32,000 nucleotides of DNA from an archaeon GW2011_AR10. Its GTDB lineage: Archaea > Iainarchaeota > Iainarchaeia > Iainarchaeales > GW2011-AR10. The stretch spans positions 60,001-92,000 of the forward strand of contig CP010424.1 of assembly GCA_000830275.1 (NCBI GenBank), written 5' to 3'. A model generated the notes under the pieces. The model saw nothing but the letters and a program-made list of their open reading frames with translations, was not told where the DNA came from and did no database searches. Position 1 is the first letter of the stretch, and each line of letters begins with the position of its first letter. The position numbers and the translations under genes were made by a program. Below, piece by piece: positions 6,990-32,000 of the stretch.

Positions 6990-7234
6990 GGGGTCGTAGT
7001 CTAGTCTGGTCTAGGATGCGAGCTTTGGGACAGCTGAAAGGTCAGCTGGCAACCTATATGTCAAGAGATTTCGCTGCGCTCAATCCCTTATTAATTTGGA
7101 CTGCATTATGGGCTCAAATTGTAAGGGTTTTCAGCGTTCGAACCTTGATTAATTTGTAGGCAATAGCTGGGTTACTTTATGGCTATTCAGTTGCGAAATA
7201 GCTTGTGACGGGGGTTCAAATCCTCCCGGCCCCA
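6990..7234 (+). tRNA. tRNA-Pro(UGG) with a 170-nt intron at the canonical 37/38 position (exons 6990-7029 and 7200-7234)
   Basis: Hand fold. Acceptor GGGGTCG/CGGCCCC with discriminator A. D arm GTCT-AGTCTGGTCTA-GGAT. Anticodon stem CGAGC/GCTTG. Loop TT-TGG-GA. Variable TGAC. T arm GGGGG-TTCAAAT-CCTCC. BHB: TTTG(32-35) pairs with CGAA(7194-7197), the 3-nt bulges are GG|A and AT|A, and the outer helix is CAGCTG(7031-7036)/CAGTTG(7188-7193). Confidence 0.8.
7030..7199 (+). other. tRNA-Pro(UGG) intron, 170 nt
   Basis: It is delimited by the BHB described for the tRNA. It contains hairpins CAGCTG-AAAGGT-CAGCTG (7031-7048) and AATAGC...GCTATT (about 7162-7187), plus an internal repeat of about 32 nt. 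Confidence 0.75.
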
Positions 7235-7309
7235 TTAGCCGGTTGCGTCCGGCTGTGACGCGGAGTGGAGGGTTTTCGCTTCGCTCAAACCATGGGTATG
7301 CCTTCAAAA
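7215..7309 (+). repeat. 95-nt direct repeat, copy 1 (last 20 nt of tRNA-Pro(UGG) plus 75 nt of trailer)
   Basis: By hand alignment, 90 of 95 positions are identical to 7973-8067. It contains hairpin GCCGG-TTGCGT-CCGGC and the motif TTTCGCTTCGCTCAAACC. Confidence 0.9.
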
Positions 7310-7871: not shown

Positions 7872-7970
7872 GGGGACGTAGTATAGTTTGGTCTAGTACC
7901 CAAGCTCGGGGGCTGTAAGACCTTTACAGCCGATTAGCTTGTAACCCCAGTTCAAATCTGGGCGTTCCCA
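7872..7970 (+). tRNA. tRNA-Pro(GGG) with a 24-nt canonical intron (7912-7935)
   Basis: Hand fold. Acceptor GGGGACG/CGTTCCC (one G.U) with discriminator A. D arm GTAT-AGTTTGGTCTA-GTAC. Anticodon stem CAAGC/GCTTG. Loop TC-GGG-GA. T arm CCCAG-TTCAAAT-CTGGG. BHB: TCGG(32-35) pairs with CCGA(7930-7933), bulges are GG|G and TT|A, and the intron hairpin is CTGTAA/TTACAG. Position 33 reads C rather than U. Confidence 0.72.
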
Positions 7971-7972
7971 CT

Positions 7973-8067
7973 TTCAAATCGTCGCGGCCCCATTAGCCGG
8001 TTGCGTCCGGTTGTGACGCGTAGTGGATGGTTTTCGCTTCGCTCAAACCATGGGTATGCCTTCAAAA
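7973..8067 (+). repeat. 95-nt direct repeat, copy 2 (orphan T-loop and acceptor remnant TTCAAATCGTCGCGGCCCCA plus trailer)
   Basis: It starts 3 nt after the tRNA-Pro(GGG) discriminator base and has 5 mismatches to copy 1. Confidence 0.9.
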
Positions 8068-17213: not shown

Positions 17214-17735
17214 ATGGCATTGGAAACTGTTTTTTTGCTTGTTCTAGTGGTTGCATTAGCCCTTGGAAATGCCCTGCTTTCATTTGTGGGGAGGAACGAG
17301 AACAAGGGGGTTTCCACTCAACAGGGGTTTATCACGGCTGCAATTCCTTTGGAGGCAGTGAGGCTTCAGCAGCTCGACACAGCAGTAAAGGTTTTATCCA
17401 ACAAGGTTGACATGGCGCATTCAAGAATTTCGTCCCTTGAAGGCGCGGTTAAAAAAAGCAGGCCAGTCGACTTCCATAAAAGCGTTGCGGAAAAACTCCA
17501 CAGGTTTGACAATTTCAGGGCAAACACCGAGGTTGAACTGAAGGGTTTAAGGGAAGCCCTGGTTGGGCTCAAGGAAAAACATTTAACCTTTAAATCCAAA
17601 AAGTTGCGGCGCGAATCCAAAGCGCTTTCATCAGAGCAGATGCACAAAATCATTTACCGCTCCTCCAAGAAAACCAAAGGCAAGCAATTAAGCAGCGCCA
17701 GGATTTCAAAGAAAAAAACCAAATATAGCAAATGA
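17214..17735 (+). CDS. Membrane-anchored coiled-coil protein (hypothetical)
   Basis: It has an N-terminal TM and a heptad-like central region with a Lys-rich tail. Its stop codon (17733-17735) lies inside the first arm of the twin-hairpin element. Confidence 0.5.
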   Translation: MALETVFLLVLVVALALGNALLSFVGRNENKGVSTQQGFITAAIPLEAVRLQQLDTAVKVLSNKVDMAHSRISSLEGAVKKSRPVDFHKSVAEKLHRFDNFRANTEVELKGLREALVGLKEKHLTFKSKKLRRESKALSSEQMHKIIYRSSKKTKGKQLSSARISKKKTKYSK

Positions 17736-17814
17736 CAAAATATTTGAACAAATAATGTCATTTGCTATCTATCAGGCGACAATAAATGTTCAAAAATTAA
17801 TGTCGCCTGCTATA
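17724..17814 (+). repeat. Twin-hairpin element, copy A
   Basis: Hairpin 1 is TAGCAAATGACA (17726-17737) / TGTCATTTGCTA (17756-17767) with an 18-nt loop. Hairpin 2 is CAGGCGACA (17773-17781) / TGTCGCCTG (17801-17809) with a 19-nt loop. The termini are TATAGCA...TGCTATA. Confidence 0.9.
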
Positions 17815-17849
17815 GTAAAAGAAGAAATGATTGTTTTTTCAGTGATCTA

Positions 17850-18401
17850 ATGCGTTCAGAAATGAAAATTGAGTGCCCTGTTTGCAGGGAAAACTCCGGG
17901 CTGTTCCAAGTTACTGAAAACATTCCGCACTTCGGGCAAACGCTTCTTTCAAGCTTTTACTGCAAGCACTGCGGTTACCGCTTCTCTGATGTCATCACCA
18001 CTGAAATCAAGCAGGGAGCAGAGTTCAAGGCAGAGGTTAGAAGCGCAGCCGACCTTAACACCCGCGTTGTAAAGAGCTCCACCGCGTTTGTGGAAATTTC
18101 CAGGCCAGAAATAAGCGTTCAGCCTGGCCCTGCTTCAATTGGGGTAATAACAAACATTGAAGGCTTGCTTGAAGCCATGATCGGGCCAACAAAAAGCGTT
18201 GCGTTTGAAGGTGGAGAAAAAATAAAAAAACTCGCTGAAATAAAACTCAAGCAGTTAATGGAAGCCAAAGAGGGAAAAATTCCTTTCAGGGTTAAATTGT
18301 CTGACCCATTTGGCAACAGTGCACTGATTGGAAAAAACGTCAAGAAAAGGTTTCTCAGCAAAAAAGAGATAAGGAAACTTGAAGAAAAGCTCGGCTTCTA
18401 G
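17850..18401 (+). CDS. ZPR1-type zinc-finger protein (archaeal ZPR1 homologue)
   Basis: CPVC...(24 aa)...CKHCGYRF zinc ribbon followed by the ZPR1 A-domain-like region, in 183 aa. The start is ATG 17850 or 17862. Confidence 0.8.
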   Translation: MRSEMKIECPVCRENSGLFQVTENIPHFGQTLLSSFYCKHCGYRFSDVITTEIKQGAEFKAEVRSAADLNTRVVKSSTAFVEISRPEISVQPGPASIGVITNIEGLLEAMIGPTKSVAFEGGEKIKKLAEIKLKQLMEAKEGKIPFRVKLSDPFGNSALIGKNVKKRFLSKKEIRKLEEKLGF

Positions 18402-23485: not shown

Positions 23486-23494
23486 TGTACTGGC

Positions 23495-23673
23495 CCGATT
23501 GCGTACTGGCACTCCGCAACACATCAAGCCATTTTATTTTACTCAATGGCTTATAAACATTAATTGGCTCAGAGTTGAGTTGACCCGATTGCGTACGGGT
23601 ACTCCGCATACCTCGAGGTATTTCACTTCGTTCAACACCTCATAAATATATTCTGGCTCAGAGTTGAGTTGAC
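23495..23673 (+). repeat. Two tandem ~90-nt units (23495-23584, 23585-23673), plus a degenerate third start up to about 23697
   Basis: Each unit has a conserved 5' module CCGATTGCGTAC(T/G)GG(C/T)ACTCCGCA and a conserved 3' module TGGCTCAGAGTTGAGTTGAC. The core is a variable hairpin: AAGCCATT/AATGGCTT in unit 1, GAGGT/ACCTC in unit 2. Confidence 0.9.
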
Positions 23674-23722
23674 AAATCATCCTTGCGTCATCAGGTGTTA
23701 ACCTCATCATCGCCTATTAGAT

Positions 23723-23735
23723 AATATAGAAGATA
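23723..23735. repeat. 13-bp perfect inverted repeat, left arm AATATAGAAGATA (partner at 24541-24553)
   Basis: The reverse complement TATCTTCTATATT is found at 24541-24553. The arms lie 22 nt beyond the stop and 18 nt upstream of the start of the methyltransferase gene. Confidence 0.9.
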
Positions 23736-23757: not shown

Positions 23758-24522
23758 CTATTTAACGCAAACATACTGGTGGAAATCTGCGAGTGGGTCA
23801 GCTGTCTTGTAATCTGAAAACTTTTCAACTTTTTTGAAGCCAGATTCCTTTATTAGCTGTAAAAGCTCGTTTTTTTTGAAGGGATATAAAATAAGATATC
23901 CTTTTTTTCCTGTTCTTTCGTCGGTGTACTGCATTTTGACTTTGTCGTCGCTTATCTCAACAGGTTCTCCATGCACTTTGTCGCCGCAATAGACATATTT
24001 CCTGCTGTATGAAAATTTGCCTTCTTCCAGAATTTCCTTTCTTTTGTCAAGAAGTTGCTGATAGTTCCTTTCATCAATGATTAAAATGCCCCCTTTTCTT
24101 AAAATGTGATAAAAGTTTTTGAGTGCTTTAAGTTGTTCTTTTCTTTCAAACAGGTAGGTTAATGAATTGCCCAGGCACAAGACTGCATCAAAGCTTTCTT
24201 TTTCAAGGTGTTTGTCGAGTTCAAGCCAATCAAATTCAGTTATATTTAAGTTGACTCCAGCATCTTTTGCATGACTCTTCGCTTTTTCTATGAACAATTT
24301 GTCTATGTCATTGCTCGTGACCTCCAAGCCTTCTTTGATCAAATAGAGTGAATCGGCTCCATCTCCCAGACAAGCGTCGAATACTCTTTTGCAATTAAAT
24401 CGCTTCAATTGCCGAATGAGAAATCCGTTTTCTCCTTTCCGGCGTTTTCCCCAGTCAATGAAATCGCTCCACATTTCAACAAGAATCTTTGAATTGTAGT
24501 TTCCTGGGTAAATCGGTGCCAT
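23758..24522 (-). CDS. Class I SAM-dependent methyltransferase, glycine/sarcosine N-methyltransferase (GNMT/GSMT)-like
   Basis: RVFDACLGDGADSLYLIKEGLEVTSNDID, FDWLELDKHL, FDAVLCLGNSLTYL and LKALKNFYHILRKGGILIIDERNYQQLL parallel the GNMT blocks VLDVACGTGVDSIML.EEGFSVTSVD, ANWLTLDKD, FDAVICLGNSFAHL and GGLLVIDHRNYD as recalled from memory. Confidence 0.75.
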   Translation of the reverse strand: MAPIYPGNYNSKILVEMWSDFIDWGKRRKGENGFLIRQLKRFNCKRVFDACLGDGADSLYLIKEGLEVTSNDIDKLFIEKAKSHAKDAGVNLNITEFDWLELDKHLEKESFDAVLCLGNSLTYLFERKEQLKALKNFYHILRKGGILIIDERNYQQLLDKRKEILEEGKFSYSRKYVYCGDKVHGEPVEISDDKVKMQYTDERTGKKGYLILYPFKKNELLQLIKESGFKKVEKFSDYKTADPLADFHQYVCVK

Positions 24523-24540: not shown

Positions 24541-24553
24541 TATCTTCTATATT
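24541..24553. repeat. 13-bp perfect inverted repeat, right arm TATCTTCTATATT
   Basis: Exact reverse complement of 23723-23735. Confidence 0.9.
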
Positions 24554-24639
24554 TTGCTTTTGTTGCTTACCTCATCATTGCCCATAAAATTTTCCGGCAA
24601 TGCTTGTAAAAACTTTAACGTTTTGACAACTATTGTACC

Positions 24640-24733
24640 TATAGCAAGGGACATAAATAATTAAACAAATAACTGTCCCTTGCTAGTCGCAAAAGACAAA
24701 AATAAAGTTCAAAAATTAATGTCTTTTGCTATA
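24640..24733 (+). repeat. Twin-hairpin element, copy B
   Basis: Hairpin 1 is TAGCAAGGGACA (24642-24653) / TGTCCCTTGCTA (24674-24685) with a 20-nt loop. Hairpin 2 is GCAAAAGACA (24689-24698) / TGTCTTTTGC (24720-24729) with a 21-nt loop. The termini are TATAGCA...TGCTATA. Confidence 0.9.
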
Positions 24734-24786
24734 AAAGCCGAATCGGATTTTTAAGCCTTTTCCATAATGGTTTTTGGAGTGGTTGC

Positions 24787-25392
24787 TTGATAACAGAATT
24801 CCTGATTGGATTTGTTTTGCAGGCAATTTCAATGCTAGGCTATGCCGGCGTATTCCTGCTCATGCTGATGGAAAGCACAGTGCTGCCTGTTCCTTCAGAG
24901 CTGGTCATGCCTTTTGCAGGCTACCTTGTTTCAAATGGCACTTTTGGTCTTATGGAAGTGATAATTGCGTCGCTTGCAGGCAGCATTGTTGGCTCTCTAA
25001 TTTCATATTATGTTGGCAAAAGTTTCGGCAGGGCAACAATAGTGAAATTTGGCAGATTTTTTTTCCTTAACGAGCATCACCTGGGCATTGCGCACAAGTG
25101 GTTTGAAAAATATGGGGACAAAACAATCCTTGCTTGCAGGTTTGTGCCAGCGGTAAGGCACGTTATTTCACTGGTTGCCGGCACCGCTGAAATGAACCTC
25201 AAAAAATTTGTATTATACACTGCAATAGGTGCGTTCTTCTGGAATTCTGTCCTTCTTGTGGCTGGAATAATGCTGCAAAAGAACTGGGTCGAAATAACGA
25301 AGTATGCTGAATGGCTTGACATTGCAATAATTATTGGCGCAGTGGTCTTCACTGCATTCCTGGTTATAAGGCACTTGAAAAGCAGAAGATAG
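24787..25392 (+). CDS. DedA-family (SNARE-associated / VTT domain) membrane protein
   Basis: GYAGVFLLMLMESTVLPVPSELVMPFAGYL and later FVPAVRHVISLVAGTAEM are typical DedA signatures. The TTG start is preceded by the SD-like GGAGTGG. Confidence 0.85.
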   Translation: MITEFLIGFVLQAISMLGYAGVFLLMLMESTVLPVPSELVMPFAGYLVSNGTFGLMEVIIASLAGSIVGSLISYYVGKSFGRATIVKFGRFFFLNEHHLGIAHKWFEKYGDKTILACRFVPAVRHVISLVAGTAEMNLKKFVLYTAIGAFFWNSVLLVAGIMLQKNWVEITKYAEWLDIAIIIGAVVFTAFLVIRHLKSRR

Positions 25393-27861: not shown

Positions 27862-30800
27862 TTAACTGCAACCGGAAGTGGTGCCGCAGTCCTCGCATAC
27901 AGTGCAGGAACCATTTCTTTTAACCCTCATTGAACCGCATTCAGTGCACTGTTCGCCGGTATAGCCCTGGCTTTTAGCTCCTTTAAGCAGGCTTTCCTTT
28001 TCACTGCCCACAGTTTCAGTTTTGTCAAAAGAAACGCCTGCATCTAGGAGGGGATTCTTCTGAACAGTTTTAGGTTCAGCTCCATGGTCCATTGTTTTAA
28101 CGTGCACAAAATCTTCCCTGCCCAAATACTCGTGCCCTAATGCCCTAAAAATGTAGTCAAGGATTGAGGTGGAGTTCTTTATTTTTTCGTGGCCTGTAAC
28201 CATTCCAGCTGGCTCAAACCTTGTGAAAGTGAATGAATCCACAAACTCCTCCAAAGGAACACCGTACTGCAGTGACTTCGAAATTGCTACGGCAAAGCAG
28301 TTCAGCAGCGCGCGGTAAGCTGCTCCCTCCTTGTACATGTCAATAAAGATTTCTCCAAGGCTGCCGTCCTCGTATTCGCCTGTTTTAAGGAAAACCTTGT
28401 GGCCGCCAACTGTTGCCTCCTGCACGAAGCCGTGCCTCTTGAATGGCAGCTTTCTCCGCTGCACTCTCTGCACTATTTTCTGCTGTATTTCCTTCGGCCC
28501 AATAAGCTCGTTAATGTCATCGCCTTCTCCAAGTGCAAGCAATTCATCATTTGCTTCATCAGAAATACTGTTAAGAGGCTGGCTCAGCTTGCTTCCATCG
28601 CGGTAAAGCGAAATGCATTTCAGCATCAGCTCCCAGCTCTTAACATAAGCCTCTTTTATTTCCTCAATCGAGGAAGTGGCTGGCATATTAATTGTTTTGC
28701 TGATTGAGCCTGAAATGAACGGCTGCACTGAAGCAATCATTTTGATGTGGCCCATGTGGTGAATGAACCTTTTGCCTTTCTTTCCGCACTTGTTGGCGCA
28801 GTCAAATAATGGGTAATGCTCTTCCTTCAGGTGAGGTGCTCCCTCAATCGTCATTGTGCCGCATACATACTCATTTGCTTTCTCGATCTCCTGCCTTGAA
28901 AAGCCGAGGGCCTTAAGCATGTCAAAGGCCGGAGAGTTAAGCTGTTCCTCCGTGAAGCCCAGTTGTTTGCAGAAATCTTCTCCCAGGTTCCACTTGTTTA
29001 ATGCAAACTTCAATTCGAACGCATTTTCTAGCTGCATTTCCACCATGTCAACCCTTTCATCAGTGAAACCTTTCCTTTTCAGTGCCTCGCGGTTAATTGC
29101 AGGGCACCCTTTGAGCGTGCCGTGGCCTTTAACGTATTTTTCAATCTCCTTTATTTGCTGTTCAGTGTAGCCAAGCCTCTTCAGTGCTTTCTGCAGTGAC
29201 TGGTTTACTATCTTAAAGTAGCCCCCGCCTGCAAGCTTCTTGAACTTCACCAAAGCAAAGTCTGGTTCGATGCCTGTTGTGTCGCAATCCATTACTAGGC
29301 CAATTGTTCCTGTTGGAGCAATAACCGTTACCTGAGCGTTCCTTAAACCAAACCGCTCTCCTTCATTCAATGCCCTATCCCATGATTCCTGTGCTGCTTC
29401 AAGCAAGTAGTTTGGGCACTCCTCTTGATTAATCGTGTAAGGCTTAACTGTCAAGCCCTCGTACTCGTTTTTTGGAGCATCGTAGGCTGCTCTGCGATGG
29501 TTTCTGATGACTCGAAGCATGTGCTCTCGGTTTGCATCAAATCGCTGGAAAGGGCCAAGGCAGCGCGACATCTCCGCAGAAGTAGCGTAACTCTCTCCGC
29601 AGAGAATTGAGGTAATGGCTCCAGCAATTGCCCTTGCTCTCTCTGAATCGTATGGAATGCCTAAAACCATCAGCACTGTTCCGAGGTTTGCATAACCTAA
29701 GCCAAGAGTCCTGAAGTCATGGCTTTTCTGCGCCATTTCTTTGCCCGGAAACTGCGCCATTAGAACGCTTATTTCAAGCACTACTGTCCAGAGCTTCACC
29801 GCGTGCTTGAATCCTTCAACATTGAAAATTCCGGCTTTTTCGTCCAAAAACTTTCCGAGGTTAATGCTTGCCAAGTTGCAAGCTGTTTCATCCAGAAAAA
29901 TGTACTCGGCGCAGTTGTGAACTGAAATACCGTTTGCAATAAAAGAGTTTGTCAGGGGCTCGTTTAAGTCAAAGACTCTTTGCACGCCAACATATTCCAA
30001 TAATTTTATCGTGTCATACGGCATGTCCTCATATGTTGTTACTTGTTCATTCAGTTCCTTGAGCTGTTGGAATTTTTTTGATTCAGGCATAAAGCCTATT
30101 AGCGTCTCAAACTTAATTCTGCTCGAGCGGGAAATTCTTAGGCTATGTAGTTCCCTTACTTGGTATTCTTTCAGCCCGCCTTTTCCATCAGGTAGCAGTG
30201 AAATGCTTTTTCCTGCCCTTCTGTTCTTGTACAGCTTGCTTTTTATTCCAAAGCCAATCAAAAGAACCTGGGTTCCTTTAAGCAATTCAAGGCTTGTGGA
30301 ATCAAGGGCAACATACTGTGATTTTTCGCCGTAGTTTGCCACTGTTCCGTCGCATGTAAACAGCCCCTGCAAAACATATTTTTGTTCACCGAGACTTAAT
30401 CCAAAAATGCTTTCAGAAATTGTTTTTTCATGTGATTTTTGTGACAGGTCAATAAACTTTGAAATTTTTTCAACAGCATCTTTTGCCATTATATGGAGTT
30501 TTGCACTCGTTTTTGTTTTCTGCATTGTTGCAGGATAATTTTGATTGGTTTTCCTTTCAAAATTTTTTGCATAATAATCAGAAAACTTTTTGACAATGTT
30601 TTCTTCCAAGTCTTTGTCCATCGTCAGCTGAATTTGCCCGCGTGAACCACATCCATCCCCCAAATATGCTCCAACAAGCTGGAAAAAGATTTTGTCAAGT
30701 GGCTCTTTTATTTCTGAAACATTATGTGAAGGAAGACAGACAAAATCATCTTTTGTTAATTCTGCAGCCTGCACAAAGCCCCTGTTTGCGGTAAATACTT

Positions 30801-32000
30801 TGTGGTCTGCAGTCAGATTTACTTCATAGCCTGCCTGTGTTTCAAGCCTGTAAACAGGTTTTTCTCCTGTTTCAAATGAACCCTTGGTTATTCCAATTGA
30901 AAGACCGTCAAGGTTTGTTACAAGCTCTGTTTCTTTGTTTACCAAGCTGTCAATTCTTTTCCAGCCGGATGAAGTTAAAACAAGTGTATCGCCTGTAACG
31001 CATGGATTTGTTGCATTGATTTTTCCGTCTGCAGGGCAGGTGTGCCATTCATTAATTGTTGTATCATATTGGATGCCGGGGTCAGCAGAGCTCCATGCAG
31101 CGAAAGCAATCTGTTCCCATAGGGCTTGTGCCTTAAGAGTTTTCACTGCCTTTTTGTCTGTCCTGTTGGTTAGTTTCCATTCCCCCCCATTGAAAACTGC
31201 TTCCATGAAACTGTTAGGGATTCTCACCGAATTGTTTGAGTTCTGTCCTGAAACAGTCAAGTAAGCATCTGATTCATAATGGGTGTCAAATTCCTTGAAG
31301 TAAAGTTTGGCGTGGCCCTGTTCCGCCAACTGCAGTGCGCGGAAAATGTAGTTCTGCGGCACGCCAAAAGAGAGCGCCTGCTTTACCGTTTCACTTAGTT
31401 CCTTGTTTTCGCTGAGGTTGGTTCCGCCATTGTTAGCGAGCCCAATGATTCTGTTAAGGAAAGCGCTTGCAATCCTGCTTCCAGCCACAAGCGCCACAAC
31501 CTTTTTTTCTTCTTCAACTTTCCAGTTAACGAAATCCTCGATGTCCGGGTGGTCAATGTCCAGTATGACCATTTTTGCGGCTCTCCTTGTTGTTCCGCCG
31601 GACTTTACGGAGCCGGCTGCGCGGTCATAAATTTTCAGGAAAGACATTAGTCCGGAGCTTATACCGCCGCCTGAAAGAAGTTCCCCTTTTCCCCGCAAAC
31701 TTGAAAAGTTTGTGCCTGTGCCTGAACCGTACTTGAATATGCGCGCCTCTTTTGTCACTAAATCAAAAATTCCGCCTTCATTAACCAAGTCATCATTTAC
31801 TGACTGGATGAAGCACGCGTGGGGTGCTGGGTGCGTGTAAGCATCAGCTGATCTTGTTAGTTCTTTCGTGTCAGGGTCAACGTAGTAGTGGCCTTGGGGG
31901 TTTCCGGTTATGTTGTACTTTAATGCAAGCCCAGTGTTGAACCACTGAGGAGAATTTGGCGCAGCTATTTGGTGCAGAAGCATGTAAGCTATTTCGTCCT
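27862..32000 (-). CDS. nrdJ: Class II (adenosylcobalamin-dependent) ribonucleotide reductase, intein-containing; N-terminus lies off the window
   Basis: The frame stays open upstream of the listed Met to base 32000 (...[23 protein letters not shown]). Motifs are [14 protein letters not shown], active site TNP-C(intein)...[19 protein letters not shown], and a C-terminal Cys cluster CTECG...CTVCEDCG. Confidence 0.95.
29914..31002 (-). mobile_element. Intein (363 aa) with LAGLIDADG homing-endonuclease domain, inserted at the NrdJ active-site Cys
   Basis: Block A is CVTGDTLV (Cys codon 31000-31002) and block B is LTADHKV. The LAGLIDADG motifs are LVGAYLGDG and LQGLFTCDG. Blocks F/G are [21 protein letters not shown] (Asn codon 29914-29916), followed by the +1 Cys of CAEY. 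Confidence 0.9.

Follow-up and report, generated by a model that had tools for sequence, protein, structure and literature searches.

What is a perfectly paired twin hairpin doing between two divergent genes, right beside a gene cassette that looks mobile? The element in question, copy B, lies in a 32-kb window (the whole stretch of 32,000 nucleotides analysed here, from the archaeon GW2011_AR10) between a methyltransferase gene on the minus strand and a DedA gene on the plus strand, and a sequence-only reading had proposed for it either a role as recombination site or one as promoter or insulator. Among the genes of the window are ZPR1, an ATP-dependent DNA ligase, a DRG-type GTPase, an archaeal ProRS, a geranylgeranyl reductase and an intein-bearing RNR, and near-identical contigs are found in aquifer (Rifle-type) metagenomes and in two NCBI MAGs. 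The evidence assembled here points to selfish or REP/MITE-like DNA as the most likely nature of the element, rather than a promoter or a recombination site for its neighbours.

The anatomy given in the sequence-only reading proved accurate. The gene coordinates place copy B between the two divergent genes, 57 nt past the right direct repeat of the cassette (the repeat ends at 24582 and the element begins at 24640), and both stems are perfect (Table 1). On the plus strand (window positions 24640-24737) the unit runs TATAGCAAGGGACA-[20 nt]-TGTCCCTTGCTA-GTC-GCAAAAGACA-[21 nt]-TGTCTTTTGC-TATAAAAG, the TAG of the initial TATAG doubling as the base of hairpin 1, and the element end is CTATA(A/G). 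A pattern scan of the window for GCAA-NN-GACA...TGTC-NN-TTGC, to which both hairpins of copy B were said to conform, gave three matches against 0.01 expected, namely the two copy B hairpins and hairpin 1 of a second copy of the element (copy A). A 105-nt stretch containing copy B folds with z-scores of -8.0 as DNA, -7.6 as plus-strand RNA and -7.2 as minus-strand RNA, and none of 200 shuffles did as well. On the minus strand the outer arms are able to form one long hairpin instead, so that the unit is a nested pseudo-palindrome. Within loop 2, GTTCAAAAATTAA is common to copy A, JBBSVU01 and aquifer copies, and the two loops carry an inverted core, TTnnACAA / TTGTnnAA. Kissing of the loops, or a long hairpin, was considered and rejected: complementarity averages 7.4 within an element and 6.4 +/- 2.3 between elements, and is poor in copy B.

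Table 1. Positions of the twin-hairpin element, its parts and the adjoining features in the 32-kb window.
Feature	Position	Strand	Evidence or remark
Copy A, same element	about 17723-17817	+	R1 match, 105 bits
17-nt direct repeat, left copy TTAACCTCATCATCGCC	23698-23714		strain breakpoint
Class-I SAM methyltransferase	23758-24522	-	left neighbour of copy B
TATA-like AATATAGAAGATA / AAATATAGAAG, outside the element	24541-24553	-	19-31 nt upstream of methyltransferase ATG
17-nt direct repeat, right copy CTTACCTCATCATTGCC	24566-24582	+	methyltransferase cassette; distinct from the element
Copy B, whole twin-hairpin unit	about 24639-24737	+	covariance model R1, fold z-score
Copy B, 5' boundary motif TATAG	24640-24644	+	similarity of near-identical copies at unrelated loci begins at (a)TATAG
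Copy B, hairpin 1, left arm TAGCAAGGGACA	24642-24653	+	inverted repeat, 12 nt, 100% complementary
Copy B, loop 1 TAAATAATTAAACAAATAAC	24654-24673	+	20 nt, A/T-rich; family core TTnnACAA
Copy B, hairpin 1, right arm TGTCCCTTGCTA	24674-24685	+	12 bp stem, perfect
Copy B, linker GTC	24686-24688	+	family range 1-6 nt
Copy B, hairpin 2, left arm GCAAAAGACA	24689-24698	+	10 bp stem, perfect
Copy B, loop 2 AAAATAAAGTTCAAAAATTAA	24699-24719	+	21 nt
Copy B, hairpin 2, right arm TGTCTTTTGC	24720-24729	+	pairs with GCAAAAGACA
Copy B, 3' boundary CTATAAAAG (the TATA-like box of the sequence-only reading)	24729-24737	+	copies diverge directly past CTATA(G)
Alternative TATA-like site GATTTTTAAG, outside the element	24746-24755	+	32-41 nt upstream of DedA TTG
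DedA/VTT protein, TTG start	24787-25392	+	right neighbour of copy B

A covariance model (R1) built from 10 members of the family recovers exactly copies A and B when run over the 32-kb window, scoring copy B at 86.7 bits on the plus strand (E = 3e-13) and 72.6 bits on the minus strand, and copy A at 105 and 75.9 bits, respectively. The arms of copy A are TAGCAAATGACA/TGTCATTTGCTA in hairpin 1 and CAGGCGACA/TGTCGCCTG in hairpin 2. The two copies align with 76% identity and conserved loops, and all five changes in the stems (two in hairpin 1, three in hairpin 2) are compensated. The proposal that a single hairpin module was duplicated and then diverged stands in part: the hairpins are related modules, but the duplication was not local, since twin hairpins are the ancestral state of a family found across several DPANN phyla. 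Copy A reaches into a neighbouring reading frame (17214-17735), the last codons and TGA stop of which come from its first bases; in strain L001 a T>A change abolishes both this stop codon and one base pair. For annotation, the element explains spurious small ORFs, altered gene ends such as this one and TATA-like boxes beside genes.

To establish the extent of the family, one genome per prokaryotic species was scanned for TAGCAA-NN-GACA-N15-25-TGTC-NN-TTGCTA with NN unconstrained, which yielded 54 loci against about 6 expected by chance. Of these loci, 23 are in DPANN MAGs, assigned to Woese-, Pace-, Nano- and Aenigmatarchaeota or, in some cases, labelled Methanosarcinales or just 'archaeon'. 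In every one of these 23 copies the free NN positions are complementary (AA/TT, AG/CT, AT/AT or GG/CC), and the paired-change pattern that had been predicted for other genomic copies is thereby confirmed. Nearly all 23 loci have a second hairpin 1-7 nt past the first, followed by a TATA-like end (CTATAG, GTATAG, TTATAC and TATATT are among those seen), and several genomes yielded more than one copy, with five in JBBSVU01 and three in JACPBV01. A metagenome scan with the loop-2/3'-end motif common to copies A and B added 15 further loci from aquifer metagenomes. R1 recovers about 40 distinct copies in the retrieved loci, from Woese-, Pace-, Nano- and Aenigmatarchaeota MAGs and from aquifer metagenomes, all on a shared plan of (a)TATAG, hairpin 1, short linker, hairpin 2 and CTATA(G), with a length of about 95-100 bp. 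Part of the apparent conservation of the hairpin-1 arms comes from the search pattern itself: twins whose first stem is unrelated (TATAGATAACTGCGTA and TATAGTAAATCACC are examples) also came up when hairpins were searched for generically, so the conservation of the TAGCAA arm is in part an ascertainment effect.

The pairing of the arms is better conserved than their sequence. The hairpin-2 stems CAGGCGACA, GCAAAAGACA, CAGGGACGCTAA, GTACCTGACA, CGGAAGACGCAA and ACGGACAA have almost no sequence in common between subfamilies, yet each is paired. In the family alignment (A3) 90.3% of the stem cells are paired, compared to 83.5% in shuffles and 28-51% when the partners are slid, and its covariation score of 0.263 (0.120 in shuffles) was reached by none of 500 shuffles. 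The stem cells comprise 859 Watson-Crick pairs, 28 G.T and 10 A.C, the other 63 being mostly misaligned linkers.

No Rfam family matches the element at its gathering threshold or at E <= 10 (the best hits score 18-24 bits, the cut-offs being 50-117), no relatives were found among plasmids or annotated IS, and the literature on DPANN repeats, hairpins, MITEs and palindromes yielded no description of it. This twin-hairpin palindromic repeat of DPANN archaea, of about 95 bp, is previously undescribed. A viral origin was rejected, the only two matches in IMG/VR viral contigs having non-complementary NN and no second hairpin, as expected of chance. The genomes of DPANN archaea are very small and streamlined, and their repeats, mobile DNA and non-coding elements are poorly known. 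A conserved multi-copy element whose two hairpins are kept by paired changes in Woese-, Pace-, Nano- and Aenigmatarchaeota suggests that proliferating non-coding DNA persists even there.

The behaviour of individual copies provides a glimpse of how the element would spread. Similarity between near-identical copies ends directly before (a)TATAG and directly after CTATA(G), and identical copies occur at unrelated loci. Members of the copy-A type, with CAGGCGACA in hairpin 2, are present in the window and at L082/L088, L091 and L090, and a second subtype occupies three different loci (L077=L086, L080=L081=L089 and L083=L084); JBBSVU01 has five loci, and six more are distributed across JACPBV, JACPBU and JACPII. 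None of the fetched loci has flanking genes in common with another or with the window, and the element does not occupy orthologous positions in different genomes. For ZPR1 the protein database contains just two homologues, at 99% and 39%, leaving no intermediate relatives for a comparison of orthologous sites. Debris is also seen, in the form of copies with decayed arms (L087, L090), solo hairpins (L078, L029 and L054), tandem pairs (L062, L035) and one copy in which each loop has grown to about 60 nt (L085). The element sits between convergent genes (L033, L050, L064), divergent genes (copy B, L044, L022) and tandem genes in either sense, its orientation being random; about half of the copies face a gene 3' end or lie between convergent genes, some filling a 150-nt gap between these and some lying only about 30 nt from a converging gene. 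It is flanked by housekeeping genes of no shared function, for example PGK, GlnA, Orc1 and TrxR. There is no conserved ORF in its 95-100 bp, and no transposase or integrase ranks in the top 25 Pfam families by recurrence when 132 archaeal and 118 bacterial flanking ORFs are screened. We are thus dealing with a multi-copy family of fixed boundaries and covarying stems, independent of gene context and linked to no gene. A TA may be present at each side, inseparable from the TATAG/CTATA of the element itself, and no longer duplication flanks it.

The strain variation around the methyltransferase cassette locates its junction. Contigs L002 and L006 part from the window at 23707 and 23717, and the points at which L017 and L018 join it are 23697 and 23701. 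These breakpoints (23697-23717) map to the 17-nt direct repeat, in its left copy, which is 0.9 kb away from copy B. Other variable DNA is bounded by further copies of this repeat, which L002 and L006 carry without an additional twin hairpin, and no such repeat is found near copy A. The cassette junction is the 17-nt direct repeat and not the hairpins of copy B, so that the recombination-site role proposed for the latter is not supported. Copy B is probably a passenger and not part of the cassette machinery, and its presence in this window is less special than had been suggested.

As for a role in transcription, the upstream regions of the window contain a BRE/TATA motif of the type AA(A/G)C-(A/T)2-TT(A/T)AA, which begins about 33-37 nt ahead of start codons. 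In copy B the TATA-like end (CTATAAAAG) is 50-58 nt before the TTG of DedA, a distance atypical for this genome. Both CTATAAAAG and the alternative GATTTTTAAG score below 4 bits with a promoter matrix built from this window, and the idea of copy B as the DedA promoter is unproven, because this second TATA-like site is nearer to the start. Upstream of ZPR1, CTATAGTAAAAG of copy A (at -41..-30) is the only TATA-like site, which makes it plausible that copy A donates a TATA box to this gene. Donation of a TATA box is thus possible at some insertions of the element, as is known for Correia elements. A promoter within the loops was rejected: with the window promoter models (Gibbs, matrix) they reach 7-8.7 bits, and matrix matches of 7-9 bits turn up about once per 600 nt in the window, so these are not significant.

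Several roles other than that of a repeat multiplying for itself have to be weighed against these data. An attC-like site for site-specific recombination of the cassette is very improbable and largely refuted. Integron attC sites are folded hairpins whose sequence is free and whose structure is kept, and the element resembles them in just this respect, as it would in being recognised by its folded structure, and in the closeness of copy B to a strain-variable cassette. It differs in having two hairpins instead of a single bulged one, in not forming arrays and in the absence of R''/R' core sites, its ends (TATAGCAA/TTGCTATA) containing neither RYYYAAC nor GTTRRRY; furthermore, the strain junctions fall in the 17-nt repeat, copy A and the copies of other genomes have neither such a repeat nor a cassette array, and no integrase recurs among the flanking ORFs. 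Improbable too, if less so, is a site read on duplex DNA by a dimeric protein, or a set of (bidirectional) promoter parts formed by the TATA-like ends. Both window copies do lie 35-55 nt upstream of a plus-strand gene, ZPR1 has no other TATA-like candidate, TATAGCAA..GACA is conserved in the arms, the loops resemble the A/T-rich BRE/TATA consensus of the window, and of 33 archaeal loci that were screened (132 ORFs), 3 have a wHTH (TrmB/HTH_24) gene nearby. Binding to duplex DNA, however, needs no complementarity at the free positions, which are nevertheless always complementary, and the hairpin-2 arms share no sequence between subfamilies. The resemblance of the loops is at a background level, the TATA-like end of copy B is farther from the DedA start than is usual (roughly 25-37 nt) and a closer TATA-like site exists, and the neighbouring genes are functionally incoherent. 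With about half of the copies facing gene 3' ends or convergent genes, promoter or insulator activity cannot be the defining function of the family.

A structured RNA, that is, a small RNA or a UTR element with stem-loops used in stabilisation, processing or protein binding, is unlikely as well, although we rate it above the duplex site. Paired changes together with conserved loops are the classic signature of structural RNA, and the RNA fold of copy B is as good as mentioned above. R1 scores the plus orientation 14-30 bits above the reverse, and the few wobbles of the main stems are T.G on the plus strand in three subfamilies (L033, L079, L080); both observations would also suit a strand-specific transcript and keep the RNA reading alive. 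Against it, both strands fold about equally well, the minus strand slightly better in 12 of 16 copies, and the stems are nearly free of G.U, with counts per strand (21 vs 23) and MFE differences that show no consistent bias, so that strand-specific folding was rejected. Near-identical copies have no upstream promoter in common, some of them almost abut a converging gene, orientation relative to the neighbouring genes is random, decayed and solo copies exist, kissing complementarity is no better within than between elements, and Rfam has no counterpart. By inspection, H/ACA, C/D, tRNA-like, origin (ORB) and attC readings were also discarded, the ACA/K-turn features, box motifs, ORB dyad and core sites being missing. 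Given the Watson-Crick stems, the lack of strand bias and of a shared promoter, the tight convergent gaps and the absence of an Rfam match, we favour a palindrome acting at the level of DNA over RNA.

Among known palindromic DNA, the REP/REPIN (BIME) sequences of bacteria are similar in being short intergenic palindromes that occur as singlets and paired units, with high identity within a genome, compensatory pairing and a fixed motif at the foot of the hairpin, and in lacking coding capacity and appearing in either orientation and in all intergenic contexts. REP elements are mobilised by RAYT (TnpA_REP, HUH-Y1), the gene for which resides in the same genome and often has REPs on its flanks. 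The foot motif of REP is GTAG, whereas that of the element is TATAG, and no GTAG precedes its palindrome. The arms of the element are split by an A/T-rich loop of about 20 nt, unlike the imperfect palindrome of REP, its hairpins fold separately where a REPIN forms one long hairpin, and its hosts are DPANN archaea, with apparently low copy number (few copies seen per genome). No RAYT/Y1_Tnp was present among the recurrent Pfam families of the flanking ORFs. The archaeal PATEs, derived from IS200/IS605, share with it a sub-terminal hairpin at each end, the non-autonomous nature, the lack of convincing terminal inverted repeats or target duplication, and a constant penta-nucleotide at the left end and closing the right end (TATAG...TATAG in the element), reminiscent of cleavage sites. 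The TATAG of the element overlaps the hairpin stem, while the PATE motif is 10-19 nt away, a difference in spacing that sets it apart from the characterised IS200/IS605 members, and the element is only about 95 bp long; in about 0.45 Mb of loci, a limited sample, no full-length tnpA/tnpB element with the same ends was found. Correia elements (CREE/NEMIS, Neisseria) and TA-targeting MITEs are comparable in size (about 100-150 bp), in their ends (TATAG...CTATA) with a possible flanking TA, in the promoter-like boxes created by these ends and in being dispersed without an identified transposase. The 26-bp terminal inverted repeats of Correia pair end to end, in contrast to the element, in which each end forms its own hairpin and the outer arms need not match (TAGCAAAAGACA vs TTGTCCGT in the JACPBV type). 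The outer ends TATAGCA.../...TGCTATA do match in the window, JBBSVU01 and CAZKXU01 copies, and only poorly in the JACPBV type. Like a MITE (below about 600 bp), the element is small, non-coding and dispersed in many copies, and no autonomous IS with matching ends was found in the screened flanking ORFs. The Rep-Arvir origin, a bipartite palindrome-plus-hairpin, adjoins a rep gene (PMC13107129), which the twin-hairpin element does not. By strict criteria the element does not clearly qualify as a MITE (there is no clear TSD, and the TIRs are weak in some subfamilies), and it belongs neither to REP (there is no GTAG, and no RAYT was seen) nor to attC or any Rfam family.

We lean, with some caution, towards a non-autonomous palindromic repeat in the manner of REP/REPIN, PATE or Correia, which multiplies as a unit and needs both of its hairpins. 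Its mobility, the recognition of the hairpins on DNA and the nature of the enzyme are what we infer; every strain contig carries both copy A and copy B, and no empty site was seen. The unit would multiply as a discrete piece of DNA, as those bacterial and IS200/IS605-derived palindromes do, by means of a putative enzyme acting in trans that recognises the two terminal hairpins by their shape, probably on single-stranded or extruded DNA, along with a small number of invariant bases (TATAG and, where the stem meets the loop, GACA/TGTC). If only copies with pairing arms get copied, changes in the stems would come in pairs, an outcome to which intrastrand template-switch repair of quasi-palindromes may contribute. 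Copy B would most likely have come to lie in its A/T-rich intergenic region as a passenger, and if DedA or the methyltransferase is affected at all, this would be a side effect of a donated TATA-like end, a cruciform or a UTR hairpin. Some observations sit uneasily with this reading: neither an autonomous element nor a transposase was found, there is no clear target-site duplication beyond the possible TA, and the terminal inverted repeats are weak in some subfamilies, e.g., JACPBV. The element offers a handle for finding the enzyme that mobilises it.

A possible relative of the element appears in a bacterial genome. CAZKXU01, a MAG labelled Bdellovibrionales with bacterial flanking genes, gave about 20 matches in a high-copy repeat of 100-215 bp that begins with TATACTAAATGACA plus a hairpin and ends with cTATAGCAAGTGACA-GAATAACGCTACGGTATTC-TGTCACTTGCTATAG, similarity ceasing right past CTATA(G). 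A Pfam screen of 118 ORFs flanking this repeat found no recurring transposase. Beyond what the search pattern itself imposed, the bacterial and DPANN copies agree in the TA that precedes the arm and the TA(G) that follows it, in the place of the boundary and in having a second hairpin at the other end. This suggests terminal structures of one kind, on which related enzymes may act. As DPANN archaea and this bacterium share the TATAGCAA-NN-GACA terminal hairpin and the CTATAG boundary, one may speculate, as a rather unlikely possibility, that the hairpins are the cis-acting end structure of an undescribed hairpin-guided ssDNA mobilisation system found across several DPANN phyla and in at least one bacterium, or else a portable two-hairpin module, domesticated in these tiny genomes, for setting transcript ends or promoters. 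In a mobilisation system of this kind the enzyme would not be encoded beside the elements. The same terminal hairpin in a bacterial MAG hints at exchange between the two domains.

Strain contigs matching the window change to other DNA exactly at a 17-nt direct repeat, identity stopping or beginning at 23697-23717. This repeat, of which further copies are present in the strain contigs (see table), has the appearance of a junction belonging to a site-specific system of cassettes or islands. Immediately interior to the window copies there is a 13-nt perfect inverted repeat, and two tandem repeats of ~90 nt, 72-89% identical, separate the left direct repeat from a 107-aa zinc-ribbon-like gene.

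Repeats and other features, with their positions
Feature	Sequence	Position	Setting
17-nt direct repeat	T(T/W)ACCTCATCAT(C/T)GCC	window 23698-23714, 24566-24582	either side of methyltransferase gene
Further copies		L002 ~17089; L006 15853; L017 417, 1285	
13-nt inverted repeat	AATATAGAAGATA	window 23723-23735 / 24541-24553	
Tandem ~90-nt repeats		window 23491-23673	
Apparent tRNA with intron	GGGACGTAGTATAGTTTGG...CCCAGTTCAAATCTGGGCGTTCCCA	window 7873-7970	
95-nt repeat		window 7973-8067	directly behind apparent tRNA
95-nt repeat		window 7215-7309	758 nt upstream
Twin-hairpin element variant		L044 2714-2803; L048 7015-7105	DAOVFN01
31-aa ORF		window 17755-17850	begins within copy A
Ribonucleotide reductase gene		window 27862-31983	

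The bacterial MAG CAZKXU01 ("uncultured Bdellovibrionales") contains a multi-hairpin repeat of 100-215 bp in high copy (about 20 loci, within L021-L074), whose ends, TATACTAAATGACA... and ...TGTCACTTGCTATAG, match the terminal arm and boundary of the DPANN twin-hairpin element. Its short forms seem to have arisen by deletion between two GACCATCC(G/A)TGGCCA repeats in the interior. A variant of the element is found in the Aenigmatarchaeota MAG DAOVFN01, with a normal hairpin 1 and the second half swapped for a different conserved sequence (…AAAAAGTCTTGCATGCCAATGCGAGAGAT) that forms a small hairpin of its own. The 31-aa ORF called by metagenome gene callers from copy A of the element (gene calls of L001-L010) is in all likelihood an artefact caused by the element.

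Elsewhere in the window, the apparent intron-containing tRNA was reported by neither ARAGORN nor Rfam. The two copies of the 95-nt repeat near it are 95% identical, and their start resembles a tRNA 3' half (TTCAAATC-TC-CGGCCCCA). The pair could be an att duplication from an integrated element or, alternatively, a split-tRNA half. The ribonucleotide reductase gene contains an intein that includes a homing-endonuclease domain of the LAGLIDADG type, and the length of its product varies among strain contigs (1346-1516 aa).
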